Assembly (NCBI GenBank): GCA_963732385.1 | Contig: CAVSZB010000007.1 | Coordinates: 704,001-768,000, forward strand | Source of the DNA: an uncultured bacterium | GTDB lineage: Bacteria; Krumholzibacteriota; Krumholzibacteriia; LZORAL124-64-63 | DNA length: 64,000 bases | Direction of reading: 5' to 3' | Shown: positions 1 through 56,325 of the stretch, piece by piece | Numbering within the stretch: the first letter of the stretch is position 1 | Layout of the letters: each line of letters starts with the position of its first letter | Position numbers and translations under genes: made by a program | The notes under the pieces: generated by a model | Seen by the model: the letters and a program-made list of their open reading frames with translations, nothing else | What the model was told of the DNA's origin: nothing | The model's database searches: none

Positions 1-659
1 AGGGCCCACCCCTCCCGCGGACCGTGAAACGCACGCGCGCGCAGGCTGAAGCTGTCCCAGGAGCGACTGTTGAGAACAGGAAAATCGCCCGGTTCCTGAT
101 AGTCGGTTGACGTTCCGCGCCAATCCCCCGCCAGATCCAGGTAGGTCGTCTCGCCGAGGTCCAGTCGCGCACCCAGACCGACGAGGGTTTCCCGCAGGTC
201 TTCGTCGATTTCGCCATGATAGAACGCTCGGCGGTAGCCCACGACCATGCCCGCCTGGGCATGGGTCCAGGCCTTCCCATACATCAGGACCCGCGCGCCG
301 ACCCCGTCGACCGACTCCTCGTCGCGGAAGAGATACAGCCCAAGCGTGCCATACCGTCGAACGGAATCCAGATCGAACAGCGCGCCGGCCCCCTGTCGCA
401 CCGCCTGCCGGTCCAGGGCGGAATTGCCGGCGCTCGCGTCATACTGCCCCAGTTCCAGCACCGCAGTGTTGGCATACGAGGAGAGACTTCCGTACCAGCG
501 CGGGACGTTCGCAACGTCCTCGAAATAGTCCCCGTCGCCGCCGAGACTGCCAACGCGCGTCTCGGTTGCGGATGCCACGGAGGCCATAACAGCGATCAGG
601 CCGAGGAGCGGCGCGAAGCGCAGAGAACGCAGGGCTACGGAGCAAAGCAGCAGCCGCAT
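1..659 (-). CDS. Putative outer-membrane beta-barrel protein, partial (runs off the window start)
   Basis: Not in the ORF track. Manual translation from ATG 659 (GGAGG upstream) gives MRLLLCSVALRSLRFAPLLGLIAVMASVASA-TETRVGSLGGDGDYFEDVANVPRWYG..., open to position 1. Signal peptide followed by alternating beta-strand-like segments. Confidence 0.7.
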   Translation of the reverse strand, partial: MRLLLCSVALRSLRFAPLLGLIAVMASVASATETRVGSLGGDGDYFEDVANVPRWYGSLSSYANTAVLELGQYDASAGNSALDRQAVRQGAGALFDLDSVRRYGTLGLYLFRDEESVDGVGARVLMYGKAWTHAQAGMVVGYRRAFYHGEIDEDLRETLVGLGARLDLGETTYLDLAGDWRGTSTDYQEPGDFPVLNSRSWDSFSLRARAFHGPREGWA

Positions 660-686
660 CGGGACATCAACCTCCTGGCGCCGGCG

Positions 687-1967
687 CTACAGCGTGCCGC
701 TGGCGACGAGGCGGAAATCGCCCAGGCCGTGGGCATCGTAGAAGGTGAAGACGAGACGCCGGGCGTGATAGTACCAGATCTCCCAGCGCCCCTCGTACCC
801 CAGATCGGCTCCCCGCTCCTCGATCGAGTCCGGCTCGCCGCAGCGGACCCAGATCCGACCGCGATCGGTGAGGGCGCCGCGTCCCAGCCCGCCGAACCGC
901 GCGTCGGCGGCCACGATCCGCAGCAGGTGCTCGCGCTCCAGCTCGGCGGCAGGGACACCGGCGGCGGTGGCCAGCGGCGGCCAGAGCGCCCGCCACGCTT
1001 CTCGCCGCTGTCCGGGCGGCAGCCGCAGCAGTTCGGCGCGTATCCCGGATGGCACGAGCCCCTCCAGCCAGGCCACATGCTGCCGCCACTGCCCGTCCTC
1101 GCGCCAACGCATCGCCAGATTCACAAACGGACGGGGAGGATCAAGGTCGAGTCGCTCCGGCGCGGTCGCATCGCCACTCTCTACCCTGAGCGACAGAACC
1201 AGCCGCCCCAGCGGCAGATCGTCCGCGGCCCAGGCAATCCGGATGACCGCGGGCGCATCCCCCACCGCTGAGGGCGAGATCATCAGCAGCCGCGGAGCCG
1301 GCTTGTCCCCCCGCCCCGGCGGCGCCACGAGCGCGGCAAGGGTGACCCCGTCCGGCGGCCAGTCCGGTACGTTGGGACGCCGGGCCAGGGTCACGCTGAC
1401 CCGCAGTGAATCCTCCTGGGGACCGAGCGCAGCGCCGGTGTTCGGCCCCACCGCCGCGTTCCAGGTGAAATCGGAAAAATAGAGCGGAACCCGCAGACCC
1501 CGTCCGGCGACGTACTCCAGGCGCTCCCGCCACCGGCGGGAGGTGCCTGTCACCAGGATCTCGACTTCCAGCGTGGTGCGGCCGCCGGCGCGCAGTTGCA
1601 GAGGCACGGCGCAGGAAAGTTGCTGATCGCCGCGCGTGGCGGCATAGTCGGCGACCGTGACCGCCGCCTCCCCCACCCCGCCCCCCGCGCGCCGGCCGTC
1701 GTGTTTCGCAATCACGGTCAACCGGATCGACGCACAAAAGGCCGCGCCCTCCCGGGTGAAGACGAGCGCGCCATACGGGACCGACGCCCGCACGAGCGGC
1801 GCTTCAGCACCGGTGGAATCGATGTGGGTAGCGACCGAGATCTGGATGCCGGCCCGGGCGGCCGGCTCCCAGGCCGGCGCCGCGCCCGTCGTCGCGGCGC
1901 CCAACAGCGCCGCGACGACGAGCAGGAGAAAAACGGCGGCAGCCTCGAGAAGCGATCGGGGGCTCAC
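687..1967 (-). CDS. GWxTD domain-containing exported protein
   Basis: Signal peptide; C-terminal ADARFGGLGRGALTDRGRIWVRCGEPD...WEIWYY...FTFYD matches the GWxTDRG-x-I-x3-G-x-PD pattern, with W degenerate. Confidence 0.8.
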   Translation of the reverse strand: MSPRSLLEAAAVFLLLVVAALLGAATTGAAPAWEPAARAGIQISVATHIDSTGAEAPLVRASVPYGALVFTREGAAFCASIRLTVIAKHDGRRAGGGVGEAAVTVADYAATRGDQQLSCAVPLQLRAGGRTTLEVEILVTGTSRRWRERLEYVAGRGLRVPLYFSDFTWNAAVGPNTGAALGPQEDSLRVSVTLARRPNVPDWPPDGVTLAALVAPPGRGDKPAPRLLMISPSAVGDAPAVIRIAWAADDLPLGRLVLSLRVESGDATAPERLDLDPPRPFVNLAMRWREDGQWRQHVAWLEGLVPSGIRAELLRLPPGQRREAWRALWPPLATAAGVPAAELEREHLLRIVAADARFGGLGRGALTDRGRIWVRCGEPDSIEERGADLGYEGRWEIWYYHARRLVFTFYDAHGLGDFRLVASGTL

Positions 1968-1981
1968 GCGCAGCCTTCCGC

Positions 1982-2710
1982 TCAGGCCGGCGACGCGTTA
2001 GCGGCCGCCGGAACGTTCGGCAGGTCGCTGGCCACACGGCCGTCGTGCAGCCGGATGATACGGTGCGTGTGCGCCGCGATATCCGGCTCGTGGGTCACGA
2101 TGATGATCGTGTTGCCATGGCGGTACAGGTCATCCATCAGCCCCATGATTTCAAGGCTGGTGACCGAATCAAGGTTGCCGGTCGGTTCGTCGGCCAAAAT
2201 CAGCGCCGGATTGTTCACCAGCGCCCGCGCAATCGCCACCCGCTGCCTCTGCCCGCCGCTAAGTTCGTTCGGTCGGTGCTCGGCGCGATCGCTCAGACCG
2301 ACCGCCGCCAGCGCCTCGGCCGCCCGCCGCCGTCGCTCGGCCAGCGGCCGGCCCGCGTAGACCAACGGCAACTCGACGTTCTGGAACGCCGTCGCGCGCG
2401 GGAGCAGGTTGAAGGTCTGGAAGACGAAACCGATCTCCCGGTTGCGGATGTGCGCGAGCTGATCGTCGGTGAGCGTGCTCACTTCGGTGCCGTTGAGCAC
2501 GTAGGTTCCGGCGGTCGGCGTGTCGAGGCAGCCGACCAGATTCATGAGGGTCGACTTGCCCGAACCGCTCGGCCCCATGATGGCCACGTACTCGCCGCGT
2601 CTGATCTCGAGATCCACGCCCCGCACGGCCGGCACCTCCACCGTGCCGACCTGGTAGGTCTTGCGCAGATCGCGCATGGCGATCAGGACCTCGTCGTCGC
2701 GGGGGCTCAC
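1982..2710 (-). CDS. ABC transporter ATP-binding protein (MacB/LolD-type)
   Basis: Walker [49 protein letters not shown]. Confidence 0.95.
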
Positions 2711-4167
2711 GACCCGCTCCCCACGTAGCGCACCGCCCGCCCGACGGCACGGTCGAGCTTGGCCGCGTTGATGAGATAGTCGCAGATGGCCTGCACCTCA
2801 TCGGCTCGCGCCTTCGCCAGGTTCACCTGCGCCGTAATCGCATCGAGAGTCGTGCCGGCGCCGACGCGGAAGCGCTCCTGCGCGAGGCGCAACGCCTCCT
2901 CCGCCTGGATGATGGTCTCCCGGCTCAGACTCGACCGCTCCCGCGCCTCGACGAGATTATTGTAGATCTGCCGCACCTCGAGTTGCGCGTCCAGACGGGC
3001 CTGCTCCAGGCCGTACTCGGCCACCCGCTCGCGCGCCTTGGCCTGCCCGCGGCCCGACAGGGTCTGCAGGCGGTCGAAAATGTTCCAGTTCACCCGGTAC
3101 CCGTAGCCGAGGTTGTCCGACTCCTGGGCGCCAAACCGGTAGGGCGACTCGTTCTTCGAGCGTGTGTAACTCAGGAACAGGTCCAGGCTGGGCCAGAACC
3201 CGGCGTTGGCCGACGTCACTTCGCCCCGGCGCGCCTCGAGATCCTGCGCCCGGCCCTGCAGATCCAAGCGGCGCGACAGCGCCTCCGCATAGAGGACATC
3301 GAGGCTTTCCAGGGTGAAGTCGGAGGACATGACCGAACGCTCGATCTCGAACCGCTCGGCGAGCGGGCGGTTCATGGCGTAGGCCAGATTGGCAAACGCC
3401 TGCTCCACGGCGTTTCCGGCCCGCACTACCTCGAGACGAGTCTGTTCGTGCAGGACCTTGGCCTGCAGGACGTCGCTGCGCGCCGCGCTGCCGAGCTTGA
3501 AGTAGACCTCCATCCGCTCCAGCTCGCGTCCCGCGAGGTCCTGGCTCTCCCCGGCGACCTCCAGCAGGCGTTCGTAGCGCAGGAGATTGAAATAGGCCGC
3601 GGCCACGTTCTCGACGACCTGCTGCCGCGCGTAGCCGGCCGACGACTCGACCGCGCGGAGCGAGCTGCGCGCCGATTTCAGCGCCCCATACTTGCGCATC
3701 CCGTCGAAAACATTCAGCGACGCGTCCGCGCCCCAGTCCGAGTAGGTCGTCTTCAGGCTCTGGTCGTAGAGCTCCCCGGTCGGGCGGGAGATCCCGTAGG
3801 GGATGATGTTGCCACCGAGGGTCGCGATCGAATCCGGGATCACGCTGGTGCGCGACACGTCGAAGTCAGTCCGCTCGTTCTTGCTGTACTGCCGGCCCAG
3901 GCTGACGTTCGGCAGGAACGCCCCCCAGGCGCCCTGCACGCCGGCGGCGGCCGCATCGCGCTCCGCGTCCGCGGTGGCGAGGCCGAGACTGCTGCGCAGC
4001 GCGATCTCCACGCACTGCGCCAGATCGAGCGCAGGCCGCGCCGCGGCCGCGCTGTCGCCCGGGGCCGCAGCCGCCAGGGAAGTTTCCGACCGCGCCACCG
4101 CGGCCTCCATGCTCACCAGCACCGACAGCGTCACCATGGCGCCCCGGCAAATGGACCGCACGTTCAT
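2707..4167 (-). CDS. TolC-family outer-membrane efflux protein
   Basis: Two outer-membrane efflux repeats (AFLPNVSL...; FWPSLDL...[14 protein letters not shown]). Start moved to ATG 4167 (AGGAG upstream); stop overlaps the ATPase start. Confidence 0.9.
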
Positions 4168-4383
4168 GAACCTGTCTCCTCCGGGAGGTGGCCGCGAGTC
4201 GCACGAACCGCCCCGCCGCCGAGCCGCGACGGGCGCCCGCGCGCCGATGATAGACAGCACCGGCCAGGAATCCAACGCCTTTCCGCGCTACCCCCGCCAC
4301 CGGCACCAGACAATAGAATACGCATGGGAACGGGCGGGGGTTGCGCCCCGCCCGCCCGAATCGCACCGCGCCCTGTCCGTCGG

Positions 4384-5028
4384 CTAGTGAAGTTTGAACC
4401 GGAAGGGGATGGCCATCCACGCCTTGACCGGGATGTTCCGCTGCTTGCCCGGCTCGAACTTGCACTTCAGCGCCGCCTCGCGCGCCGCCGAATCGAGCAT
4501 CGGGTGCACCGACTGCAGCACCTCCGCCCGCAGGACGCTGCCATCCGGGCCGACCAGCACCTTCACCAGCACCGTCCCCTCCAACCCAGAGGCCCGCGCC
4601 ATCTCCGGGTAGTCCGGCTGCACGAACCGGATCAGCTTCGGCTTCTCCTGCGAGGCGATGAACACATCGCCCCCGCCGTCGCCCATATCGCCGCTGGGCA
4701 CCGGGATGTTCTCGAAATCCTCGAACAGGCTCTCTGCGATATCGATGTCCTCAGTCACCTCGTCGTCCGCCGCGGCCTCGACCGCCGCCTGCGGGCGCGG
4801 CACATCCTCGGGCGGCGGCGGAATATCCACCGCGTCGGGCATGTCGACCACTTCGAGCGTGCTCGAACGGAGCCGGTACGGCTGCGGGATGTAGCGCGGC
4901 GAGAACATGAAGGCCAGCAGGATCATGAGCAGCCCGATGTACGTGGCATTGCGCAGGTACTTCGGGTACTTCGCCTTGAACTGCTCGTTGGCTGACAGGG
5001 CCGCCTGCGCGAAATCTTGCGCGGTCAT
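4384..5028 (-). CDS. tonB: Energy transducer TonB
   Basis: N-terminal TM, Pro/acidic linker, C-terminal PDYPEMARASGLEGTVLVKVLVGPDG...IPFRFKL. Confidence 0.93.
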   Translation of the reverse strand: MTAQDFAQAALSANEQFKAKYPKYLRNATYIGLLMILLAFMFSPRYIPQPYRLRSSTLEVVDMPDAVDIPPPPEDVPRPQAAVEAAADDEVTEDIDIAESLFEDFENIPVPSGDMGDGGGDVFIASQEKPKLIRFVQPDYPEMARASGLEGTVLVKVLVGPDGSVLRAEVLQSVHPMLDSAAREAALKCKFEPGKQRNIPVKAWMAIPFRFKLH

Positions 5029-5041
5029 GCTGCCCCCACTC

Positions 5042-5470
5042 CTAGTACTTGCGGCCGGGGTTGGCGTCGGGCTTGCTGTTGAAGGACACGCGCAAGGCGT
5101 TGACCTCCTTCAACTCCTCCATCACATCGCTGACGACCTTGTACGGGGTCTCCTTGTCGGCCTTGAAGGCGACGATCAGGGCCGGGTTGGCCGCGATCTT
5201 CTGCCCCATCAGCGCCGAAACATCCTGCGGGCGCACGAGCATGTCGTCGACGGAAATCTGCCCCCGCCTGCTGATAAAAATGTTGGCCACCAGGTCCTGC
5301 TTGACCTTCTCGCCCGCCTCCGCGCGCGGCAGATCAACGACCAGACCGGTCTCCTTGATGAAGATCGTGGTCACCATGAAAAAGATCAGGAGCAGGAACG
5401 CGATATCCCCCGTGGAGGCGGTGGGAATCGAACTCCCTCGCGCATTCTTGCGATTGAAATCGAGGGCCAC
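5042..5470 (-). CDS. exbD: ExbD/TolR biopolymer transport protein
   Basis: GDIAFLLLIFFMV TM with the conserved Asp; KADKETPYKVVSDVMEEL. Confidence 0.93.
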   Translation of the reverse strand: MALDFNRKNARGSSIPTASTGDIAFLLLIFFMVTTIFIKETGLVVDLPRAEAGEKVKQDLVANIFISRRGQISVDDMLVRPQDVSALMGQKIAANPALIVAFKADKETPYKVVSDVMEELKEVNALRVSFNSKPDANPGRKY

Positions 5471-5487
5471 GGCTTAAGCTCCCATCC

Positions 5488-5898
5488 CTACTTGGACGTC
5501 TTCAGCGACACCCGACGGGCCTCGGACAGCTTGAGCTCGTCCAGACACGCCACCATCATGCCGTAGTTCGCGTCGGGGTGCGTCTCGAGCACGACGACCA
5601 GTTTCGGCTGCGCCTGGAGGCGCAGTTCCAACGCCGCCTTGATGTGATTGATCTCGATCGAATTCCCGTCTAGCGTGACGCTGTTGTCAGCGTGAACCTT
5701 CAGGGTCGCGATGTTGCTCTGCTTGATCCGGATCGCCTGCTGCACGGTTTCCTTCGCGGGCAGCAGCAGCGGCAGGCCCAGGTCGAGCGCGAACGCCGTC
5801 GACACGATGAAGAAGATCAGCAACAGGAAGGCGACGTCACTGGTCGAAACCAGCTCGATCCCCGCGATCGCCTTCTTCCGCCGCGACTTCATGACCAT
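5488..5898 (-). CDS. exbD: ExbD/TolR biopolymer transport protein (second paralogue)
   Basis: SDVAFLLLIFFIV TM with the conserved Asp; HPDANYGMMVACLDEL. Confidence 0.92.
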   Translation of the reverse strand: MVMKSRRKKAIAGIELVSTSDVAFLLLIFFIVSTAFALDLGLPLLLPAKETVQQAIRIKQSNIATLKVHADNSVTLDGNSIEINHIKAALELRLQAQPKLVVVLETHPDANYGMMVACLDELKLSEARRVSLKTSK

Positions 5899-5948
5899 GA
5901 CCGCTCACCTTCCCGCTCGCGGACGGGCCGCGCCCGCCCCGCTTTCGG

Positions 5949-6827
5949 CTACTTCCGCGCCTGGATCCGGACGACCTCGTCGATCAGCTCGCCGGCGCTC
6001 TCCTCCATCTCGTTCACGAAGCGGTCGTTCACGGCGACGAAGTAGTTGTAACCGGCGGCGCACGGGATGGCGATGATCAGACCGGCGGCGGTGGTGATCA
6101 GAGCCTCGGAAATACCGCTGGCGACCAGCTTCGCGTTGACCTGCTCGGCCGCGGCGATCGCCTCGAAGGCGTGGATCATGCCCGAAACGGTGCCGAGGAA
6201 GCCGATCAGCGGAGCGATGTTGATAACGGTCGTGATCCAGTTGAGGCCGCGCTCGAGGAACGCGAGTTCCAGCGCGCCGGCCGAGCCGCACGCCTTCTCC
6301 ACCGCCGCCGGCCCCTGGTCGATTTTCTGCAGCCCGGCGTTCATGATCGCCGCGATCGGGCCGCGGGTGCGCTGGCAAAGCTGCGAAGCGGCGTCGGCCC
6401 CCTCGGTGCGCAGCGTGGTGATGACGCTGCCGATCAGCTTCCGGGTGTCGGTCCTGGCGCGGTTGAGCGTCCAGAAGCGCTCGATCACATAGGCCGCGCC
6501 AATGATGGCCGACAGCAGCAGCCAGTGCATGAAGTTGCCGCCGCGGACATACAGGTCGCCCACGCCGGTCCGGCCGAGCCGGCTGTTGGCGATCAGGCCC
6601 ATGAACCCGCCCATCTTCTGCTTCACGACCAGGATCTCATCCGTGGAGTCCTGGGCGGTGGAGCCGAAGGCGAGCGAATCGTTCGTCGCCATGATTCCTT
6701 CGATGTTCGGACCGCCGGCGTTGTCCGGCTGCTGGGCGAGGGCGGCATAGGCCATCAGCAGGAGGGCCACCAGACCCACGCCAGCCAGCGCGACCGCAGC
6801 GCGTTTGATCATACCCTGACGAGCCAT
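5949..6827 (-). CDS. exbB: MotA/TolQ/ExbB proton-channel protein with N-terminal signal peptide and extension
   Basis: APLIGFLGTVSGMI and GISEALITTAAGLIIAIP motifs; ATG 6827 with GGGAG upstream. Confidence 0.93.
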   Translation of the reverse strand: MARQGMIKRAAVALAGVGLVALLLMAYAALAQQPDNAGGPNIEGIMATNDSLAFGSTAQDSTDEILVVKQKMGGFMGLIANSRLGRTGVGDLYVRGGNFMHWLLLSAIIGAAYVIERFWTLNRARTDTRKLIGSVITTLRTEGADAASQLCQRTRGPIAAIMNAGLQKIDQGPAAVEKACGSAGALELAFLERGLNWITTVINIAPLIGFLGTVSGMIHAFEAIAAAEQVNAKLVASGISEALITTAAGLIIAIPCAAGYNYFVAVNDRFVNEMEESAGELIDEVVRIQARK

Positions 6828-6976
6828 TGTGCCTGATCTCCCTTTCCAGTATTGAAACCCGCGAGTTGAGAGCACCCGGAGGTCGTAATGGTAGCAGGTG
6901 GGAGCTACCTCGTTGTAGGCGGCCGGCCTCCGGTGGCCTCGCGGCAACCGACGAACCGCCCTGCCGACGCCCAGTT

Positions 6977-7005
6977 AATTTGTGGCAATCGCGCGCCCAA
7001 GTCAA
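6977..7005 (-). promoter_or_regulatory. Candidate sigma-70 promoter for exbB-exbD-exbD-tonB
   Basis: TTGACT-N17-CAAATT on the minus strand; the -10 element is imperfect. Confidence 0.4.
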
Positions 7006-7053
7006 ACGAAATTCGACCGCCACGGCGGCCTGAGCGCGCGCTCAGATGCCCAC

Positions 7054-8655
7054 TCAACCACCTTGATTCAAGGCGTTTGTCGACTCGAGCGACCACAGCC
7101 CGGTGCCGGTCCGATCGACGAACAGGAAGCGCAGGCCCAGATTCTGCCCGCTGTACCGATTGGGAAAGATCTGCGACCCGGCGTGGTTGTACTGCCACAG
7201 CTCGAAACCTCGCTCGAGCCTGATGCCCTGCTGCCGGGCCAGGATCTCCCGCCGCGACTGATGGTTGAGCAGGAGAGGAATGCCGGAGCCCCCTTTGACC
7301 TGCGTCCCCTCGCGCTGTGGAACGTACTGATCGAACACCCGGGCCAGCGCGTCCTCCTGCTCCGACTCGTTGAGGGGCAGCACCTCCTGGGAAATCTCGT
7401 CGGGCGGACCGAGCATCAGGAAGATCGCACCGCGTGGATCGACCGGCCCGGTCCGGGAGAGCCCGCCGAGATACTCCCGGACGTAGGAAACGCGCCGCCG
7501 GAACTCCAGGTACGCCTCGTTGACCGGCGTGGCCGGATCGGGATCGCGCTCCTGCCAGAAACGCTCCAGAATCGCCTCCTTTTCCGCCTGCCCCACGGCC
7601 TCGAATTCGTCCAGTCGGCTGCCGGTCAGGACCGTTCGCCCCTCGCCTTGCAGTTCTTCCGCGAAACGGTTGAGGGAATGGGCACTCCAGACCACATCGA
7701 ATTCGGCCACCCAGGGTCGGCCCCGCCCGCTCGCCGGCGCACATCCGAGTTGATAGGCGCCAGGCGGCAGATCCCTGAGGTTGAGATCGTAGAACACGCC
7801 GGTCGTGCCGCCGCGCGACAGACGAGCGATCTGCGCTTCGTCGAAGGTGATGGTGTCACGCAGGGCGAACGCGAGATCCTTGGCGAGCACCTGAATATGG
7901 ACGCCGTCGCGGGCCGCCGCCGCTCCCCCCTGCGCCGGCGCCTCCACTTCGAAGTACAGTTGCAGATTTTTCTGTTCCAGGCCGTAGCGACGGTTGGGGT
8001 GCAGATAGTCGGTCAGGACGGAGTGTTCCGCCGCGGCGGCCGCCACCCCCTGATCACGCCAGAGTGCGATCGGCGCGCCGGCGAGAAATACCGGATCGCC
8101 GAGCGTGAGACCGTCCGGAGCCCGGAGCGATTCTGCCGCCACCCACTCCCCCACCGCCTCGCTCCGCGCCCAACGGTTGCGCTTGATGCGGCTGATCAGC
8201 CCCGGCCGCTCCCGGCCGCGGTCCGTGATCGTGACGGTCAGGCGCCCACTGCCTGCGCGCACCCCCGGCAATACGAGCGGCAGGATCTGATAGGAGATGG
8301 GTGATTCGGCCAATTCCGGATCATCGCAACGGAGGGCGACCCTCGTCTCCAGGGAGGCGCCATCGCCATCGTACCCTTCCAGTGCGACCGTCACCCCCAC
8401 CTCCCCTTCCAGCCGACCGGCAACGGGGCGGAAGGTCAGTTCGCGGTTCGCCACGCCGATGAGCAGGATGAGGCTGCAGCTCCCGTCCGGTTCGATGCGG
8501 TCGAGGACGTCGACGGTCGTCAGGAAATTACCGGATCCATCGAGCGGTCGCAGCAGCCCGGCGCCCGCCGGGTCTGCGACCAGCAGGGCGAAAAGAGAAC
8601 AGACCAGGCGGGCGGGAAGACAGCGCAGCAGCCAGGCGCGCGGTGAGTACTGCAC
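7054..8655 (-). CDS. GWxTD domain-containing exported protein
   Basis: ERFWQERDPDPATPVNEAYLEFRRRV...GPVDPRGAIFLMLGPPDE...ELWQY...FLFVDRTGTG follows the GWxTD domain layout; GTG 8655 with GAGGAGG upstream. Confidence 0.85.
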   Translation of the reverse strand: MQYSPRAWLLRCLPARLVCSLFALLVADPAGAGLLRPLDGSGNFLTTVDVLDRIEPDGSCSLILLIGVANRELTFRPVAGRLEGEVGVTVALEGYDGDGASLETRVALRCDDPELAESPISYQILPLVLPGVRAGSGRLTVTITDRGRERPGLISRIKRNRWARSEAVGEWVAAESLRAPDGLTLGDPVFLAGAPIALWRDQGVAAAAAEHSVLTDYLHPNRRYGLEQKNLQLYFEVEAPAQGGAAAARDGVHIQVLAKDLAFALRDTITFDEAQIARLSRGGTTGVFYDLNLRDLPPGAYQLGCAPASGRGRPWVAEFDVVWSAHSLNRFAEELQGEGRTVLTGSRLDEFEAVGQAEKEAILERFWQERDPDPATPVNEAYLEFRRRVSYVREYLGGLSRTGPVDPRGAIFLMLGPPDEISQEVLPLNESEQEDALARVFDQYVPQREGTQVKGGSGIPLLLNHQSRREILARQQGIRLERGFELWQYNHAGSQIFPNRYSGQNLGLRFLFVDRTGTGLWSLESTNALNQGG

Positions 8656-8763
8656 GATGGTGACCTCCTCGAATCGCGGCAGAGACGGATGCCGGCGGTC
8701 GGCTTTGGTGAATCTACGGCGACGACGACAGCGCGGCAACGCCGCAGGCTCGGAACCTACGCA

Positions 8764-8798
8764 CGCGGGCCCGCCTCCCCAGGGGAGGCGGGCCCGCG
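8764..8798. repeat. Perfect 17-bp inverted repeat (intercistronic stem-loop)
   Basis: cgcgggcccgcctcccc-a-ggggaggcgggcccgcg just after the PorV-like gene stop; no U-tract. Confidence 0.8.
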
Positions 8799-8817
8799 AA
8801 GCCGGCGACCGCAGACG

Positions 8818-9750
8818 CTAGTAGACGAAAGAGAGCGTGAGGCGATTGACCCAGCCGAGCGCCTGCATGTCGGTGGCGCTGTAATCGAGGCGGGCCTGCG
8901 AGGTCTTGCCGGTATTGAAGGCCACGCCAAAGCCCATGGCCAGAGCGTCCGAATCGAAGTTCAGATTGTAGCCGGCCCGGCCATAGAACAAGTTGTTCAG
9001 ATTGTACTCGATCCCGAGGTTCGCCCGCTCGGCCGCGTCGGCCGGATGCTGAAACTCCGCCGAGGCCAGCAGTTGCTGGCTGCCACGGTTCAGGGCGTTG
9101 AAACTGGCCCCGACCTTGAACGTGGTCGGCAGTTTCGCCTCGCGATCATCGAAGTTCACTTTTCCGCCCAGGTTCTGAATCACCATGCCAAGTTTCAGCC
9201 CCCGCACGCCGATGCGATAGAGAATGCCAAAGTCAGCGCTGGCGGAGTTCACGGCCGCTTCGGCAAGACCCATGTGGAGATAGTTGAGGGTCAGCCCGGA
9301 ACTGAACTTGTCCGTGAAGAAACGGCTGTACGTGAACCCGAAGGCGGTCGAACCGGCATCGAAGGTCTGGCCGTTACCCTCCGGCTGGTAGGCGGTGCGG
9401 ACCAGCATGGGATCAAGCCACAACGACCGGACAGAGATGGCAAACGAGCCCGGGATCTGGCGCGGCTTGAACGCCAAAACGGCCGAGGTCAGCTTGATAT
9501 CCGCCGGCCAATCGACGTGGGAGAGCTGGAACTCGCTGCCACGTACATTCACCAGTCCGGCCGGATTCCAGAAGACCGAGGCTGCGTCGTCAGCCACCGC
9601 GGTATAGGCCGCCCCCATGCCGGCCGCCCGAGCGGTCGTTCCGATCTGCATGAACTGCCCGGCGAAGGTGCCCACCTTCTCGAAGAACGCGGCCGACGCC
9701 ACCGCGGGCAGGACCAGCACCAGCACCGTTAATAACACTAAGCGCTTCAT
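8818..9750 (-). CDS. PorV/PorQ-family (FadL-like) outer-membrane beta-barrel
   Basis: Signal peptide, then KVGTFAGQFMQIGTTARAAGMGAAYTAVADDAASVFWNPAGL; aromatic C-terminus (LTLSFVY); GGAGG before ATG 9750. Confidence 0.88.
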   Translation of the reverse strand: MKRLVLLTVLVLVLPAVASAAFFEKVGTFAGQFMQIGTTARAAGMGAAYTAVADDAASVFWNPAGLVNVRGSEFQLSHVDWPADIKLTSAVLAFKPRQIPGSFAISVRSLWLDPMLVRTAYQPEGNGQTFDAGSTAFGFTYSRFFTDKFSSGLTLNYLHMGLAEAAVNSASADFGILYRIGVRGLKLGMVIQNLGGKVNFDDREAKLPTTFKVGASFNALNRGSQQLLASAEFQHPADAAERANLGIEYNLNNLFYGRAGYNLNFDSDALAMGFGVAFNTGKTSQARLDYSATDMQALGWVNRLTLSFVY

Positions 9751-9791
9751 GGGAACCTCCAGGTCCGACCGCGGACCGGTCACCACACTTC

Positions 9792-12629
9792 TCACCGGAT
9801 AACCACGAATTTGCCGATGAAGTCCTTGAACCGCGAATCGGCCGACTGCACCGCATAGATATAGATCCCGCTGACGATTTCCTGGCCGTTGCGGCTGACC
9901 AGGTTCCAGCTCACCGAGCCGTATCCTGCCGTGCCGTCATGTTCCAGGGTCTGCACCAGATCGCCGTCCTCGGTGAATATTTTGATCGTGTTGCGGGCCT
10001 CCGGCAGGTTGGCGAAAATAACCTGCACCCCCGTGGGGTCGTCCGCATTCGGCAGAAGCTCCATCGGCCTCAGCGCCTCACGCGTGGCTGGGTTCGGGTA
10101 GACATAGATGTTCGCCCCGAGCAGTTCGCGCTGCTCCGCCGTCTGCGCCAAAGCGGCCGGCACCGAATGGCCGAACGCGGAGCCGGGGTCGCCCGACTGC
10201 CCGGGACCCGCAATGACCGGGGGGGCGTCTGGGTTGACATCGAAGCGCAGCGCGTGATCGGCGGCCGAGACGGCGTAGAAACTGATAAACCCGTTGTGCA
10301 CATCGCGATCCATGTACCGGTAGAAATTCATCGCCGTTTTGGCGACGACTCCCGGACTGCCGGGCCGCGACAAAACCCAGAAGAAGGTATCCAACTCCGC
10401 CGGGTAACCTTCCCAGGGAATCAGCCCCAGCAGGTCTTCGCGCGGCAACCCCGAGCGAGTCCGCAGCGCCGGGATTTCCTGCAGCAGGCCGGCCACATCC
10501 TGATCCACGACCGTCCGCATCTCCTGCGGCAGTCCGTGGAAACGCTGGCCCAGGGCCGTATCGGCCAGACAGACCGGATTGTAGCGAATTTCCTCCAGCC
10601 CGGTGTTGGCGCCAAGCGGCAGCGTGTCGGAGAGAATACTGCCGTCGATCAGCACTCGGTTCCGGATGTAGCTGTTATCCAGATCATACTCGGCGATCAG
10701 TTGCCAGAGGGAGTTCGCCGGCCCGTTTTCCAGGGAGGAACCGAATGGCCGTGTCCAGTTGTCCGCACGATAAATGCGGTACGCCTCGAAGTCGATCTTG
10801 TTCGTGCGCACATCCGGCGTGATTTCGCTTTTATCATTCCAGAAAACCGCCACGGCGTTGTCGGTCGGCATCAGACGCATATCCGGAGGCGGCGGCGCCA
10901 TGCCGACCAGCCAGTGCACAACAGATTCATTGCCACTGATCCCGGTGCAGCCGGCCTTCTCCACCGGATTCGTGACGACCGGATCCCAGCAGTTCCAGCG
11001 GCCGTTCGGATTGGGGTTGGTGGGCGTGCAATACTGTCCGTTCTGCCTGAAACACTCGAAACAGTTGTCACTGTTCACGTAGATGCAGCGCTTCCCATAG
11101 GTCGGACTGTTCGGATTCGCGTCCAGAACCAGATCCTCGCTGGTGATCGTGGGCTGAGCGAGTAGGAAATCCTGCGACACGCAACTGACGTCCATGTAAT
11201 CGGGTACGAAGCCGAAAATGGGGTTGGCGCCGCCGCCGACGGACGAGTAATCCTCCTGGCAAATTTTCAAATCGCGGCCATTGACCCCGGTCAACGGGTC
11301 CGAGTCGAGGTTGAGATAGTTGCCGTACCAGGTCAAAGCGGCTTCGGCCGCGTTCGAGAGCATCCCCGCAAAGCCGTTGCCCACAACCATCGCCGCCTGG
11401 AACCGCAAAGTGCGGTCAGCATCCAGGCGCTGGAACGGGCCGGCCGAAACCAGGATGCGGAAATCGGCCTTCTTCTCCGGCGCGACATCCGCGTCGTATT
11501 CCGCCACACTGAGCAATTCATAGCGTTCCGCGTCGTTGGTCGGGTCTCCGCCCTGCTCGAACTGCGCCTGGCCGGCAAAAGACTGGTATGACCGCACCTT
11601 TACCCGCGCAGGTGCCGTCACGCCGGAGGGATCGATGTCGTGGCCCAGGAAGAGGATGCCGAAGTAGCCCGGCGCCTGGCCGTCATCGCCATCGTCGTCA
11701 TACATGAAGCCGATCGAAATCGGCACATAGCTGCCATCCTTCGCCCGCACCGCCCCTTCGAAGTAACCAGCAAGATCGTCCTCCGCGAGCGACTCACGGC
11801 CGCGGGGGCCGATGTCGCAGTCGGCGAAAAAGCCGATGTAGACGTTGAGGAGCGGACTGACGCCGATGTTCTTGATGAAAAACTCGAAACCGACGAAGTC
11901 ATCCACATCGTCGTTTTCCCACGCATAGGCCTGCTGTACGATTTCCACGTTCAGCGGGACATGGTCAGGGTTGAGTTCCTGCGACAGCCGCGTGTTGTCG
12001 ACCATGGTCGTGACAATCATCTGATTGCCGATCTGGCCGAAATCCTCGTCTATCAGGCCGTCACCATCGTCATCGTAGCCGTTGAGCGTCTCCTCGTCGA
12101 TGGCGCCGTCCTCGTCGTCGTCCGGATTCGGCTCCGGCATGCGCCGCCCGCCGGCGTTGTCGTTTCCGACCGGCCGTAACAGCTTGCCCCCTCTTGCCTC
12201 GTAGATCGTATCGCGTATATCGTCGCGGCAACGGATCTCAGACGGCTGGTATTCGCCCGTGGAGGCCAATTTTTCGCCCTGCATCAGGGCGCCAACCCAG
12301 AGCCCCGCCCCCCAGAGATACTCCACGCCCGAACCTGCCGGCCATTGCGCCGAAGGGGCATCGGAGATGGCGCTCACAAACGAATACTGCGAGCCGATCA
12401 GGCCGAAGTTCGTGATGTTGATCTGCAGTTCGCCCGCATTCATCACATAGGAACCGTCCACGACCGGAAATCGGTGCGGATCAAGCCGGTCGCCGTCCAG
12501 CGGATCGGGCAGATCCTTCCAGGCCAGGGCGGGAGCAGCCCCCGCGACCAGCAGGGCGGCAAGGCATGCCCGCCATACGGCCCCGGCCGTCAGCGACCCG
12601 CGGCGGCGGTTCCAGCGGCGTGATGCCAT
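9792..12629 (-). CDS. Large exported protein with a T9SS type-A-like C-terminal sorting domain
   Basis: Signal peptide; DxDxDG Ca-binding-like motifs; Cys-rich insert; FN3-like APPPP...AVFW segment; C-terminus IYVYPNP...IKIFTEDGDLVQTL...WNLVSRNGQEIVSGIYIYAV...GKFVVIR. Confidence 0.85.
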   Translation of the reverse strand: MASRRWNRRRGSLTAGAVWRACLAALLVAGAAPALAWKDLPDPLDGDRLDPHRFPVVDGSYVMNAGELQINITNFGLIGSQYSFVSAISDAPSAQWPAGSGVEYLWGAGLWVGALMQGEKLASTGEYQPSEIRCRDDIRDTIYEARGGKLLRPVGNDNAGGRRMPEPNPDDDEDGAIDEETLNGYDDDGDGLIDEDFGQIGNQMIVTTMVDNTRLSQELNPDHVPLNVEIVQQAYAWENDDVDDFVGFEFFIKNIGVSPLLNVYIGFFADCDIGPRGRESLAEDDLAGYFEGAVRAKDGSYVPISIGFMYDDDGDDGQAPGYFGILFLGHDIDPSGVTAPARVKVRSYQSFAGQAQFEQGGDPTNDAERYELLSVAEYDADVAPEKKADFRILVSAGPFQRLDADRTLRFQAAMVVGNGFAGMLSNAAEAALTWYGNYLNLDSDPLTGVNGRDLKICQEDYSSVGGGANPIFGFVPDYMDVSCVSQDFLLAQPTITSEDLVLDANPNSPTYGKRCIYVNSDNCFECFRQNGQYCTPTNPNPNGRWNCWDPVVTNPVEKAGCTGISGNESVVHWLVGMAPPPPDMRLMPTDNAVAVFWNDKSEITPDVRTNKIDFEAYRIYRADNWTRPFGSSLENGPANSLWQLIAEYDLDNSYIRNRVLIDGSILSDTLPLGANTGLEEIRYNPVCLADTALGQRFHGLPQEMRTVVDQDVAGLLQEIPALRTRSGLPREDLLGLIPWEGYPAELDTFFWVLSRPGSPGVVAKTAMNFYRYMDRDVHNGFISFYAVSAADHALRFDVNPDAPPVIAGPGQSGDPGSAFGHSVPAALAQTAEQRELLGANIYVYPNPATREALRPMELLPNADDPTGVQVIFANLPEARNTIKIFTEDGDLVQTLEHDGTAGYGSVSWNLVSRNGQEIVSGIYIYAVQSADSRFKDFIGKFVVIR

Positions 12630-12691
12630 CGTTTCCGTTCCTTTCCGGCCGCCGGACGGGTGAGGCACCGCCCTCGGCCGCGCTTGCGCGG

Positions 12692-15600
12692 CTAGAATAA
12701 CCAGCCGAGCCCGATGCGGAAGAGGCGGTGATCCTCGAAAATGCGCGGGTCGTTGATCGGGGTAAACTCGTTCAGGCTGTCGCCATTCTTGTCCTGCAGA
12801 TACGCCCCGCCGTAGCGGCCGGTCTCGGTCAGAAAGGATTCGTAGGCCGCGGTGGCGTTGATCATGCCGGGAGTAAGGGTCATACCGATATTCCGCACCA
12901 TGTCCTGGTTGATCAAATTGAACGCCTGCACATACAGGGTGAGCGCCTGCCCGTAGAAGTTGATCTGCCGTTCCCCCTGGAAATCGAGCGAGAACGTGGA
13001 GGGGAGCCGCTCGCTGTTTTCCAACAACGGATTCTGCCGCCTGGCGAAGCGATCATTCGGCGTCCAGGGATAGCCGCTGCCGTAGGATGCGGTAATCGAA
13101 CCGGACCACGATCCCGGCTCGGACAGAAGCAGCGAAAAATTGAAGGTGTGTCGCTGGTCCCAGCTCAGCGACAACTCCTGGTTCGGAAGGTACTGCAGCC
13201 CTTCCGGATTGGCGCCGAAGGTCTGCTCGGACGCCACGCCGTCAGCGAACGCGTAGGTGTAGGTGATGTCGAAGGCGAAATTCTCGGCGAACCGCTTGTT
13301 CAGCGTGAATTCGGCCCCGCGCGATGACGCATACGCCTTGTTGATGTAGCGCGCCAGGACAGTGCCTGTCACCTGGTCGGTCACCGTGGTGGAGGCGATC
13401 AGATCGTAGATATCCTTGCTGTAGACCGCGAAACTGCCGGCCAGGTAATTGTTGAACTGGTGCTTGAGACCGGCCTGATAGCCGACCGTGGTCTCGGACT
13501 TCAGGTTGGGGTTGCCCAGAACTCCCCCCTGGTTGCCGATCGGATCCTGGCTGGAGAACAGCACGTCACGGTCGGGGAACTGGATGAAACGACCGTAGTG
13601 GAAGCTGAAACCGTCGCGCTCGGTGATCGGGAAGGCGAAGCCGAGGCGCGGCGAGAACTGCTGCTTGTACTTGAGAACGTTCTTGTTCACATCATCATTC
13701 TGCAACAGGATCTGCGCCGCCGACCCGGGCGAGAACAGATCCCAGCGGAAACCGTAGTTGACGACCATCCCCTCGTATTCCCAGCGGTCCTGGATGAACC
13801 AGGAGGCCTCCGGGTTGTAGCTGTGGAAGATGTTCGCGTTGCTGCCGAGCGACCAATCGCCCGTGTAACGGTTACGACGCTCGATCGCCGGGTTGAAGAC
13901 CCTGTAACGCTGCAGATCATTGTAGATCAACTGAACGCCGGTCTTGACCAGGTGCCCGCCCCATCGGCTCGAGGTCATGTCCAGCTTCATGATGTACTGG
14001 CGACTGTACTCCTCCGAGTACTGCGGGTTGTCGCCCGTGGTGATGAAGAGCGAGTTGAGCGGGTCGGTGTAGAAGTCACTGAAATACTGGTAGACCGGGG
14101 TCTGACCCTGGAACGCCCCGGGGGAATCGACACCGCCGTGATTGTACTCCCACGGGGATTTGCCGCCGACCGAGTATTTCTTGTCGAACGCCACTCGGCT
14201 CAGCTTGATCGTATAGAAAGTTTCGTCGGTCAGGTTGTGCGTGAGTACGAATTTCGCCTGCTGGCTCAGGTTGATCCACGTGAGGTCGCGATCGGCGGAG
14301 TTGAAGGCGGTGAACGAGGAATCCTCCTGGGCCGTGGCGTAGGTCGACCACGGATAGCGAAAGCCGTCGAACACCGGCTGCGCCATCACCAGGTAGTTGC
14401 GCCCGTCGACTCCGCGCACCTGCAGGATCGGCGAAACCTGCCGGATCTCGCTGGAATTGCGGGCGTCGACCACAATCGCGGGGCGCGCGGTCTGGTTCAT
14501 GCGCTCGAACCACGGGCCGTAATAGACCGGGGCGTAGCGGCCAAAGAAGTTATAGGTCTCCCCGTCGCGCGCACGCTCCACGATCGGCATCAGGATCATC
14601 CGGCGGGCGTAGCCCGAAACGCTCCAGTTCGGGGAGTAGACCTCGTTGGAGGAGTAGGAACTGCTGTACTCGCCGGTCAGCTTGAGATTGGGATTGAAAG
14701 TGTAGGCAAGCTTCACCGCCCCCTTGGCGTTGTTGCTCTGGCGGCGCCTGAACTTGAGCAGGGTCATGTCGCCGACCTGCACCTTGTACTCCGGCCGGTT
14801 GGCGATGGAGGTGTTTTCGCCGTCGGAGAAGGTGAGGTCTCCCGAGAGGAAGTAGGTCAGCTTGTTGACCGGCGTCGGGCCGCCGAAACCGAACTCGAAG
14901 CGGTCGTAGTTCGTGTAGGTCTTGTCCTGGCGACCGAAGTCGTCCGTGAAAAAGCGCAGGCCCCCCTCGAACTGGTCAGAGCCGGAGCGGGTCGTGATGT
15001 TGATGACGCCCGACATCGCGTTGCCATATTCCGGGTCGAGGCCGCCGGTGACGGTGTTGACCGCCTCCACGGAAAGGTTGGACACCGCGATGGCGCGCCC
15101 GCCGAGCGGATCGTCCACCGGCACATCGTCGATGCGCATCGAGACCTCGCCCGAGCGACCGCCACGCACGAACAGGTCGTCGCCGCGCTTGATCACGCCG
15201 GCCTGCTTGGCCACGGCGTCCACGACCGAGTCGATGGCGTATTTCGTCAGGCGCTCGGAGGTGATTTTCTGCTCCTGGACGGCGCTCTTCACCTCGACCA
15301 TGTAGGCGGCCCCCTCGACGTCGTACGCCGCGAGCGTTTCGACGATGACCACCTTCAGGCCGAAGGAGAGCTGGCTGACGTTGCCGGAGCTCACCTGGAC
15401 CGTCTGCTCCTCGACCGCATAGCCGAGATAGAGCACCTGCACGGTGTAGCTGCCGGGCTGCAGACCCTGGAAGTAGAACGCCCCGCCTCCGAGCGACATG
15501 GTGCCCCGCGTGGTCCCCTTGATCAGGACGTTGGCGTAGTCCAGCAGTTCGCCCGACTCCTGATCGCGAACGATGCCCTTGATGGAACCGGGCGCGCTCT

Positions 15601-15703
15601 GGGCGGCGGCCGACCCGGGCAGCGACAGCGCCACCAGCCCCGACAACGCCAGGCAGGTCAGCGCAACATACGCGAGCCAGTCGAACCGGTGACGACGGTG
15701 CAT
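12692..15703 (-). CDS. TonB-dependent receptor
   Basis: N-terminal carboxypeptidase-regulatory-like domain (GSIKGIVRDQESGELLDYANVLIKGT), plug (VRGGRSGE...GGLDPEYGNAMSGVINITT), barrel (SPRLGFAFPI, GNPNLKSE), C-terminal Phe. Confidence 0.95.
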   Translation of the reverse strand: MHRRHRFDWLAYVALTCLALSGLVALSLPGSAAAQSAPGSIKGIVRDQESGELLDYANVLIKGTTRGTMSLGGGAFYFQGLQPGSYTVQVLYLGYAVEEQTVQVSSGNVSQLSFGLKVVIVETLAAYDVEGAAYMVEVKSAVQEQKITSERLTKYAIDSVVDAVAKQAGVIKRGDDLFVRGGRSGEVSMRIDDVPVDDPLGGRAIAVSNLSVEAVNTVTGGLDPEYGNAMSGVINITTRSGSDQFEGGLRFFTDDFGRQDKTYTNYDRFEFGFGGPTPVNKLTYFLSGDLTFSDGENTSIANRPEYKVQVGDMTLLKFRRRQSNNAKGAVKLAYTFNPNLKLTGEYSSSYSSNEVYSPNWSVSGYARRMILMPIVERARDGETYNFFGRYAPVYYGPWFERMNQTARPAIVVDARNSSEIRQVSPILQVRGVDGRNYLVMAQPVFDGFRYPWSTYATAQEDSSFTAFNSADRDLTWINLSQQAKFVLTHNLTDETFYTIKLSRVAFDKKYSVGGKSPWEYNHGGVDSPGAFQGQTPVYQYFSDFYTDPLNSLFITTGDNPQYSEEYSRQYIMKLDMTSSRWGGHLVKTGVQLIYNDLQRYRVFNPAIERRNRYTGDWSLGSNANIFHSYNPEASWFIQDRWEYEGMVVNYGFRWDLFSPGSAAQILLQNDDVNKNVLKYKQQFSPRLGFAFPITERDGFSFHYGRFIQFPDRDVLFSSQDPIGNQGGVLGNPNLKSETTVGYQAGLKHQFNNYLAGSFAVYSKDIYDLIASTTVTDQVTGTVLARYINKAYASSRGAEFTLNKRFAENFAFDITYTYAFADGVASEQTFGANPEGLQYLPNQELSLSWDQRHTFNFSLLLSEPGSWSGSITASYGSGYPWTPNDRFARRQNPLLENSERLPSTFSLDFQGERQINFYGQALTLYVQAFNLINQDMVRNIGMTLTPGMINATAAYESFLTETGRYGGAYLQDKNGDSLNEFTPINDPRIFEDHRLFRIGLGWLF

Positions 15704-15898
15704 GGCACCGCTCCTTTCGCACTTGGCGATTCCGCTCAGGCTTGCAGGTCCACATCGGCCTGCCACCGGGTCACTGCGGCCAGCGGCGCGGCAGCGTGGG
15801 GAGCTTGTATGCAAGTCCGGAACCCACACTTCCTAAACGCCGGCTCCGCGCTGGGGAGGTGGGTCCCGGCAGGTGTCCGAACCGGCAACTCTCGGCTG

Positions 15899-15927
15899 AA
15901 TATAGAGATTGCCCCAAACCGTGTCAA
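15899..15927 (-). promoter_or_regulatory. Near-consensus sigma-70 promoter for the receptor-CTD protein-PorV operon
   Basis: TTGACA-N17-TATATT on the minus strand, in a high-GC background. Confidence 0.8.
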
Positions 15928-15936
15928 CCCGCGCTT

Positions 15937-16932
15937 CTATCCCCTCTGCTGCGCCTGCGGACAGCGCAGGAAGTGCCCCGTCGCGATCTCCACCAGCGGC
16001 GGAATCCGCCGTCGACACACCTCTTCCACCAGCGCGCAGCGCGGGGCGTACGGACACCCGTCGGGGGGATCGAGGAACGAAGGGGGCTCGCCGGGCGACG
16101 GCACGGCCGGCACCTCCCCCGCGGCGACCGCGGCAAGCGCGCCGGCCAGGGTCGGCGCCGCCGCCAGCAGGGCGCGCGTGTAGGGATGGCGCGGCGCCGC
16201 GCCCCCCTCCGCCGACCACACCTCCACCAGCCGGCCGAGGTACATCACCGCCACGCGGTCACACAGCCGCTCCACCAGGCGCGGATCGTGGGCGATCAGC
16301 AGGAGACCGAGGCCGCGCCGCTGCTGCGCCTCGCGCAGCAGATTCAGGACACGCGCCCGCAGCGGAGCGTCGAGCGCGCTGACCGGCTCGTCCGCGATCA
16401 ACACCCGCGGCGCGACCGCCAGCGCCCGCGCGATCGCCACCCGCTGTCGCCCCCCTCCCGACAGTTCGTGCGGCCGCACGGCCGCCGCGCCGGACGGCAG
16501 GCCGACCTCCTCCAGCAGGCGTCGTGTCTCCGCCGCCCCGTCAGGGCCGCCGCCAGCCCGCACCGCCAGCGCCTCGGCCAGCGCGGCGCCCACGGTCTGC
16601 CGCGGGTCGAGCGCGCCACCCGGATCCTGGCAGACGAGTTGCGCCAGCCGCCGCGCCACGCGCAGTTCCGCGCCGCGCAAGGCCGCCAGGTCGCGTCCAT
16701 CCACCCGCACGGAACCGGCTTGCGCCGGCCAGAGTCCGACGGCCGCGCGGGCCAGCGTCGACTTGCCGCAGCCAGATTCTCCCACCAGCCCCACCGTTTC
16801 ACCGACGGCCACGGCGAGACTGACGCCGTCCACCGGCCGGATCCGCGCCGGCCGCCGCCACGGCCCCCGGCGGACCGGCAGTTCGACTGTCAGGTCGCGC
16901 AGTTCCAGGACCGGGGGCTCGGCGTCGGTCAT
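15937..16932 (-). CDS. Oligopeptide/dipeptide ABC transporter ATPase (OppF/DppF-like)
   Basis: [40 protein letters not shown], Cys-rich tail; ATG 16932 overlaps the upstream stop. Confidence 0.92.
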   Translation of the reverse strand: MTDAEPPVLELRDLTVELPVRRGPWRRPARIRPVDGVSLAVAVGETVGLVGESGCGKSTLARAAVGLWPAQAGSVRVDGRDLAALRGAELRVARRLAQLVCQDPGGALDPRQTVGAALAEALAVRAGGGPDGAAETRRLLEEVGLPSGAAAVRPHELSGGGRQRVAIARALAVAPRVLIADEPVSALDAPLRARVLNLLREAQQRRGLGLLLIAHDPRLVERLCDRVAVMYLGRLVEVWSAEGGAAPRHPYTRALLAAAPTLAGALAAVAAGEVPAVPSPGEPPSFLDPPDGCPYAPRCALVEEVCRRRIPPLVEIATGHFLRCPQAQQRG

Positions 16933-19742: not shown

Positions 19743-19790
19743 CGGTCTCGCTTCCGTTGGGAACGACCCGCCCACGAACGGTGACCGCTG

Positions 19791-56304: not shown

Positions 56305-56325
56305 ATCAAGGGGGGCGCAGCAGGC

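Follow-up and report, generated by a model that had tools for sequence, protein, structure and literature searches.

In the SusCD/RagAB systems, a TonB-dependent transporter (TBDT) works with a surface partner, SusD, which is lipid-anchored, and the complex is Ton-driven. Anchoring by a barrel is described for the T9SS (type IX secretion system), whose substrates carry a C-terminal secretion domain (CTD): P. gingivalis PorZ retains its CTD and is anchored by PorQ (PMC10947112), and type B cargo is anchored by cognate PorP-like barrels (PMC9143113). Substrate release from the translocon needs energy (PMC10994853). Here we describe a locus with features of these systems on a 64-kb stretch of DNA (the window; positions 704,001 to 768,000 of contig CAVSZB010000007.1) from an uncultured member of the Krumholzibacteriota, whose assembly (G000; 3.8 Mb, 95.8% complete) is called the source genome below.

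Eleven genes follow one another on the minus strand, encoding a TBDT, a CTD protein, a PorV/PorQ-family barrel, a protein with a GWxTD domain (GWxTD-A), ExbB, two ExbD paralogues, TonB, a TolC-family channel, an ABC ATPase and a second GWxTD protein (GWxTD-B). The initial annotation had read this run as a single envelope system behind a near-consensus promoter. The genes, their order and strand and the promoter were all confirmed (Table 1), the gene identities by Pfam and NCBIfam profiles. The single combined system was not: the run joins three separable units, a four-gene core, a Ton module and an exporter module, rather than forming one 11-gene machine. We lean towards reading the core as a conserved, near single-copy outer-membrane module for Ton-driven capture and import, in which a T9SS-exported protein would serve as surface partner and GWxTD-A would help from the periplasm.

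Conservation of the gene order

In 20 related loci from eight families, picked by their GWxTD matches, the barrel, GWxTD-A, exbB and tolC were always present (20/20), the TBDT was called in 19 (40-74% identity among the orthologues), GWxTD-B in 18, the CTD gene between TBDT and barrel in 16 and tonB in 15. Antisense frames had been called in five of these loci (L005, L008, L011, L014 and L019) and were settled from protein orthologue searches, save for the TBDT of L014, which was left uncounted. In an unselected test on 81 Krumholzibacteriota genomes, orthologues of the barrel and of exbB were each found in 80, with one match per genome except for two barrel matches in G017. The barrel was co-oriented with the exbB orthologue and within 7 kb upstream of it in 75 of the 79 genomes having both, and two of the four unlinked genomes (G012 and G060) break at contig ends with the core intact.

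The core extends to a second phylum, where 17 of 18 genomes have a barrel orthologue, and these barrels group with that of the window in a tree (support 96/91). TBDT, CTD gene, barrel and GWxTD-A are adjacent in all 11 loci read in that phylum; seven continue with exbBDD-tonB, three hold only an exbD remnant on a contig without exbB, and one lies at a contig end. The comparison shows that the order is conserved and that the first four genes are its firmest part. The initial annotation had named a lack of conserved order in relatives as counter-evidence, and the conservation found goes far beyond chance.

Components of the core

The TBDT has weak matches to plug and TBDT-barrel models, and its best PDB relative by profile, over the N-terminal part, is 9gbc ('TonB-linked outer membrane receptor', E 4.9e-18). 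Among the 13 NCBIfam families matched at E ≤ 0.1 there was no SusC/RagA model. The initial annotation had reported neither SusD nor glycosidase genes in the window, and the 13 proteins scanned from it indeed gave no such match. A SusD search confined to the CTD protein and its orthologues likewise gave none in the protein itself or in 13/13 orthologues.

Family matches of the CTD protein are restricted to its tail, the best being the PorZ model (E 1.9e-6), with TIGR04183 under its threshold (16.3 bits, cut-off 23) and a weak match to the PorU structure 6za2 (E 0.045). Its body belongs to no known family by profiles, and Atlas returned only unnamed clusters. The CTD is of an atypical class that is found beside PorV-family genes: the five scored tails that stand before such a gene in the source genome all fall within the 17, out of 86, that resemble the common type least (hypergeometric p about 2e-4; the profile seeds were chosen by eye, a sixth neighbour was left out because its barrel has no family match, and a seventh tail gave no score). 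A paralogue of the body, carrying a common-type CTD and with no barrel beside it, is encoded at C3:237565-239409 (L161), the body being a secreted domain of no known family.

The barrel scores below both the PorV and the PorQ equivalog cut-offs, with PorQ (84.9) above PorV (75.7); in the porU-adjacent paralogue the order is reversed (PorV 114, PorQ 66.8). From its sequence, the dedicated PorV barrel of the initial annotation does look like a dedicated anchor, but one of the PorQ-like kind. Another barrel clade, separate from this one (support 100/98), comprises four Ignavibacteria loci and one Eisenbacteria locus, in which the barrel also lies beside GWxTD genes; these cassettes are not orthologous to that of the window. 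An attempted complex prediction of barrel with GWxTD-A gave no answer (score 0.00 twice, against a mark of 0.32) and was not used either way.

The source genome encodes further barrels of this family. At C3:443513-450994 (L159), a CTD protein, a 499-aa lipoprotein-like gene, a TBDT and a PorQ-like barrel lie together with no GWxTD or Ton genes. At C8:354895-368683 (L162), the gene directly after that of a 2677-aa CTD protein encodes a PorV-family fusion protein of 649 aa, with no exbBD adjoining. A PorV-family gene at C8:113170-114080, after a 778-aa CTD protein, is divided into two open reading frames, which suggests a frameshift or an assembly error.

GWxTD proteins inside and outside the locus

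Both GWxTD proteins of the window carry a degenerate form of the GWxTD motif. The model of GWxTD-A (pLDDT 87.5) predicts two immunoglobulin (Ig)-like domains, whose structural matches to Ig and fibronectin type III (FnIII) domains are generic (Z 8-9.6), together with a helical plus four-stranded domain; the GWxTD-B domain was modelled with the same pLDDT (87.5). Signal peptides were recognised by eye in both proteins, and some homologues have lipoprotein-like signals. The GWxTD domain had no Foldseek match at E ≤ 0.001 (best Z 5.3) and no sequence relative in the PDB. Its C-terminal subdomain could be superposed on OsmE (4dm5; Z 4.8, root-mean-square deviation 2.2, 50 aligned), at a level tied with unrelated propeller blades. 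As judged from predicted models, these searches indicate neither a new fold nor a relation to BamE.

The source genome encodes exactly two GWxTD proteins, and the family occurs in 81/81 Krumholzibacteriota and 49/61 Bacteroidia genomes sampled. Its neighbours in 20 Bacteroidia loci are rmuC-rlmB, or glycosyltransferases and a lipid A acyltransferase. In 13 Krumholzibacteriota loci (L102-L114, families f4, f5, f7, f8 and f9), one to three extra GWxTD genes follow lptF-lptG, divergent from sprA; the domain lies near the N-terminus in the one checked, and such genes were found neither in five loci of other families nor in the source genome. A linkage of GWxTD to sprA was considered and rejected: the 13 loci, picked for proximity, hold lptF-lptG between the two, and five Krumholzibacteriota sprA loci and two outside the phylum are free of GWxTD genes.

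The second barrel clade, with its non-orthologous cassettes, favours a real tie of GWxTD to cassettes of this kind, whereas the varied Bacteroidia and lptFG neighbourhoods weigh against a specific one. The most fitting view of GWxTD proteins is that of a general envelope family of the periplasm, as a rule paired, which in a sample of 41 Bacteroidota genomes occurs only with SprA; three Acidobacteriota have GWxTD in the absence of SprA. The periplasmic accessory role proposed by the initial annotation is retained for GWxTD-A, likely an Ig-domain accessory of such cassettes drawn from this general family. Our literature search found no paper containing 'GWxTD'; supplementary files and most subscription papers, outside its reach, may mention GWxTD genes.

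The Ton and exporter modules

All ExbB, ExbD and TonB_C domains score above the Pfam cut-offs. The window operon is the sole exbBD operon of the source genome with a detected tonB, the others being the tol-pal cluster, an exbB-exbD pair and motAB. Outside the Krumholzibacteriota, exbB matches at E ≤ 1e-38 occur in 21 of 52 genomes; among 20 such loci a TolC exporter follows in five and a TBDT-CTD cassette in one, and in four Ignavibacteria-type loci (L128-L130, L132) exbB is unlinked to T9SS genes. Five loci (L122-L126) have exbB-exbD-exbD, in part with tonB, and then tolC, in part preceded by a YknW gene, with MacAB-type genes next in four of the five; the pairing of Ton motor and exporter recurs across these loci outside the phylum. 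The Krumholzibacteriota form of the exbB-to-GWxTD-B run is also seen in L035, a record titled as a Patescibacteria-group bacterium, probably wrongly. Another arrangement of GWxTD and Ton genes is seen in L125/L041, where a GWxTD pair, two NHL-repeat proteins, a CTD protein and exbBDD-tonB-tolC form one run.

Profile matches assign TolC and the ATPase to a separate MacAB/YknWXYZ-type exporter that is split over two loci in the source genome, where a YknW-like protein, a MacA-like adaptor and two MacB-type permeases are encoded 650 kb away (C7:1364428-1369081). In relatives the adaptor and permease genes sit between tolC and GWxTD-B, the adaptor and two permeases being contiguous after tolC in 9 of the 20 related loci, and GWxTD-B usually comes after such an exporter. 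Zixibacteria-type loci have the order tolC-adaptor-ATPase-permeases-GWxTD-GWxTD with no TBDT or Ton genes near.

Four lines of evidence separate the units. SprA, a PorU-like protein and a general PorV encoded elsewhere would account for export of the CTD protein and of about 80 others. TolC and the ATPase belong to the YknW-membrane fusion protein-permease exporter, split here and whole in relatives. The Ton genes have a promoter-like site of their own in 8 of 17 loci and are gone from 3 of the 11 second-phylum loci while the core is kept. Lastly, GWxTD genes occupy unrelated neighbourhoods in other lineages.

T9SS genes elsewhere in the genome

The initial annotation had combined T9SS parts with a TonB receptor and noted that the window has no sprA. 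The SprA/Sov translocon indeed lies outside the operon, at C4:162089-168616 (451.6 bits, cut-off 200). A PorU-like protein is present at near full length (416.8 bits against a cut-off of 420) with a PorV-family gene next to it, and 86 protein tails of the source genome match the CTD-type profile, of which a few are probably something else. SprA, the PorU-like protein and the general PorV thus belong to the genome at large and not to the run, and they would cover CTD-protein export. GldM had no match in the source genome at E ≤ 1, and GldL and GldN were not found there with models that lacked a positive control. A complete canonical T9SS elsewhere, which the initial annotation had taken as evidence against its proposal, is therefore half present, the outer-membrane part being found and the canonical motor not. 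Five proteins of 950-1000 aa (C3:187265, C3:192592, C3:196562, C4:87467 and C7:172849) have nearly identical CTD ends, which suggests recent expansion of one secreted family.

Among 77 GWxTD-bearing genomes GldM was found in none and SprA in 72. As a control, the GldM search scored over the cut-off in 10 of 41 Bacteroidota genomes. Within this sample, GWxTD is present in each of the 23 genomes that have SprA without an over-cut-off GldM, and it is absent from the eight that have no SprA and from the 10 that are GldM-positive. The mutual exclusion of GWxTD and GldM, perfect in this sample, was refuted by GWxTD-positive Bacteroidia, 5/5 of which had GldM when tested, so GWxTD is no simple substitute for the motor of the T9SS.

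Promoter and intergenic elements

The promoter ahead of the TBDT has only four exact copies in the genome. Of 17 Krumholzibacteriota loci, 13 carry the identical site upstream of the orthologous TBDT and the remaining four a close variant; these two observations make it more than a chance match. The hairpin directly after the barrel gene possibly marks a module boundary. One of its arms has 51 genome matches at two mismatches or fewer, indicating a repeated palindromic element of the genome, and a hairpin at this place reached z ≤ -2.7 in only 9 of 19 relatives, so it is not universal. Upstream of exbB, a relaxed promoter pattern is present in 8 of 17 leaders, the window included, a count made without a shuffle control. 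Rfam searches for RNA elements and riboswitches gave none at gathering threshold in three related loci and one chance match in window positions 1-20000.

Proposed mechanism and alternative explanations

The CTD protein would be exported through the SprA encoded elsewhere, and its uncleaved tail, by analogy with PorZ-PorQ, would be held by the PorQ-like barrel. It may then contact the TBDT and present substrate to it in a SusD-like role, while the downstream ExbB-ExbD2-TonB unit would energise and open the TBDT and GWxTD-A would assist from the periplasm. In favour of this reading, where the CTD gene has moved out of the operon (4 of the 20 loci), four of five genomes tested encode a full-length orthologue at another place. 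That the module is kept nearly everywhere, in single copy and behind a strong conserved promoter, suggests a substrate of the housekeeping kind. Our best guess, a tentative one, is peptides, because dpp/opp-type ABC genes flank the operon.

Several observations weigh against this interpretation. The tail of the CTD protein scores below every curated cut-off. Its gene parts from the TBDT and barrel in two families and had no detectable full-length orthologue in G029. GWxTD-A is lost from the operon in G025, and a search of 10 leaders from the second phylum did not find the conserved promoter. Loss of tonB from 5 of the 20 loci and of exbB from three second-phylum loci means that the locus need not carry the energy link. 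Relatives can keep a gene order without a common function behind it, and the two phyla are related. Both the contact within the core and its substrate are proposals from sequence.

An alternative is that the run is an uncoupled envelope cluster: the CTD protein and its barrel would make up a single unit at the surface, whereas the TBDT, Ton motor, exporter and GWxTD pair would each be housekeeping genes in their own right, their proximity owed to inheritance and to a common high level of expression. Each sub-block does detach somewhere, the run is set among housekeeping clusters (mreBCD-rodA, gcv and dpp), an internal promoter-like site and hairpins lie between the modules, and GWxTD genes accompany rmuC-rlmB, glycosyltransferases and a lipid A acyltransferase in Bacteroidia and lptFG in the 13 selected loci. 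We nevertheless consider it unlikely: the triple of TBDT, CTD protein and PorV-family barrel recurs in non-orthologous cassettes, in other phyla and in the source genome itself, which inheritance of a single operon does not explain. Somewhat less probable still is a scheme in which ExbB-ExbD2-TonB and GWxTD adaptors power cargo extraction from SprA in place of a GldLM motor and GldKN hub. It would account for the energy that release requires (PMC10994853), for the co-occurrence of SprA with GWxTD in genomes where a search that works on controls finds no GldM, and for the exact coincidence of GWxTD with the 23 SprA-positive Bacteroidota lacking an over-cut-off GldM. It conflicts with the wide presence of GWxTD in Bacteroidia, where all five genomes tested carry GldM as well, with the Acidobacteriota that have GWxTD but not SprA, and with an exbB that is matched in only 21 of 52 genomes outside the phylum and is unlinked to T9SS genes in the four Ignavibacteria-type loci. 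Moreover, the TBDT in the same operon is an ordinary TonB client, and the lineages are not independent samples.

The least probable of these explanations, in our view, is that the TBDT-like barrel imports no nutrient and instead serves the CTD protein in signalling, assembly or export. It would then be akin to PorF, a TBDT-like T9SS accessory, or to Myxococcus Oar. Single-copy, near-universal retention behind a strong conserved promoter is unusual for substrate-specific transporters, the leader holds no Rfam regulatory RNA, and a SusC/RagA model is missing from the NCBIfam matches; on the other side, the plug, C-terminal barrel and N-terminal extension match importers, and SprA is already an export route. 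We keep Ton-driven capture with a T9SS-exported partner as the preferred interpretation. A bolder version, which we doubt, would define a SprA-positive, GldLM-less branch of the Fibrobacterota-Chlorobiota-Bacteroidota (FCB) group, with essential TBDTs bearing T9SS-exported lids on dedicated PorQ-like barrels and periplasmic GWxTD proteins coupling these complexes, possibly with the translocon, to ExbBD-TonB.

Features of the window and neighbouring genes

Table 1. Positions of the promoter, genes and other elements of the locus within the 64-kb window
Feature	Positions	Strand	Match or remark
sigma-70-type promoter, TTGACA-17-TATATT	15899-15927	-	11/12 match
TBDT, 1003 aa, CarboxypepD_reg N-terminal extension	12692-15703	-	CarboxypepD_reg E 7.9e-15
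CTD protein, 945 aa, signal peptide, acidic Asp-rich motif, PorZ/PorU-like C-terminal secretion domain	9792-12629	-	tail profile
PorV/PorQ-family barrel, PorQ-like	8818-9750	-	NF033709 179.8 bits, cut-off 90
Perfect GC-rich hairpin directly after the barrel gene (porV)	8764-8798	-	-43.2 kcal/mol, 45-nt window
GWxTD-A, 533 aa, signal peptide, two Ig-like domains, GWxTD domain	7054-8655	-	TIGR04514 51.8 bits, cut-off 28
Weak internal promoter-like site upstream of exbB	6977-7005	-	relaxed pattern
exbB, N-terminal extension	5949-6827	-	PF01618 E 6.5e-33
exbD-1	5488-5898	-	PF02472
exbD-2	5042-5470	-	PF02472
tonB	4384-5028	-	PF03544 E 1.2e-20
TolC-family channel	2707-4167	-	PF02321, TIGR01844
MacB/LolD-type ABC ATPase	1982-2710	-	profile match
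GWxTD-B, 426 aa, second of the usual GWxTD pair	687-1967	-	TIGR04514 49.5 bits, cut-off 28
dpp/opp-type ABC genes (two permeases, two ATPases), upstream, co-oriented, context	15937-19742	-	possible substrate hint
Weakly PopA-like porin gene, lineage-specific neighbour, leaving the window edge	1-659	-	NF053618 E 3.3e-5

The run is surrounded by the housekeeping clusters mreBCD-rodA, gcv and dpp. Similar dpp/opp-type genes lie upstream of the TBDT in 14 of the 20 related loci, families f4 and f7 being without this link. After GWxTD-B, a family-5 binding protein is encoded in several related loci and a PopA-like porin in three of the 20. Contigs of a relative (about 92% alike) cover parts of most genes, one spanning 5217-7863, although contigs cannot show transcription; three RNA runs from one study contained 5-7% of the words.

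Divergent from the dpp genes, a two-gene unit without an NCBIfam family (window 20046-23364, plus strand) encodes a lipoprotein-like protein of 682 aa and a barrel-like one of 425 aa, whose N-terminus weakly matches the PorV family. In window positions 56000-64000 the G+C content drops from about 70% to 56-60%, and a sugar-transferase-like gene at the start of this part suggests a polysaccharide locus.

Significance and comparison with known systems

If the proposed reading is correct, SusD is not the sole means of giving a TBDT a surface partner, since the T9SS would supply and anchor one, and such a module is retained in nearly all genomes of a phylum. The reading would also provide a first context for GWxTD proteins and would sharpen the question of how cargo is released from SprA in the many genomes without a detected GldM. 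Parts of the proposal are testable now, in cultured Ignavibacteria with a GWxTD-linked cassette of the same design and in the many Bacteroidia with a GWxTD pair. Our literature search found no paper joining Krumholzibacteri and type IX secretion and nothing on a TBDT-CTD-barrel-GWxTD cassette, on which PMC11495043 is silent too.

Among described systems, the Ton module corresponds to TonB-ExbB-ExbD, from which it differs in having two exbD paralogues and an N-terminally extended ExbB, with a TolC-MacAB-type exporter often next to it in several phyla. The exporter resembles MacAB-TolC/YknWXYZ in its TolC, MacA-like adaptor, MacB-type ATPase, two permeases and YknW-like protein, but is split over two loci in the source genome, and GWxTD genes often follow it. 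The Bacteroidota T9SS, which comprises SprA, PorV, PorU, GldKN and GldLM (PMC10994853), is matched by the SprA, PorU-like protein, PorV and about 80 CTD proteins of the source genome, although none of these genes belongs to the operon and searches detected no GldL, GldM or GldN.

The core has two closer relatives. With the PorZ-PorQ/PorU-PorV attachment complex of P. gingivalis it shares a PorV/PorQ-family barrel and a tail nearest to those of PorZ and PorU, whose CTDs are uncleaved there (PMC10947112); however, the body of the window protein is not that of PorZ or PorU, only the tail matching, and here the pair goes together with genes for a TBDT and a GWxTD protein. The likeness to SusCD/RagAB lies in a large TBDT with a CarboxypepD_reg extension, a next gene encoding a large, likely surface-exposed partner, and Ton energy. 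In contrast to those systems, the run has no matches to SusD-family or SusC/RagA models, the partner has a T9SS-type tail and a barrel gene of its own instead of a lipid anchor, and the core is near single-copy across the phylum with no adjacent glycosidases. By analogy, the core likely works like SusCD while belonging to it by neither sequence test, and likely borrows the anchoring logic of PorZ-PorQ.

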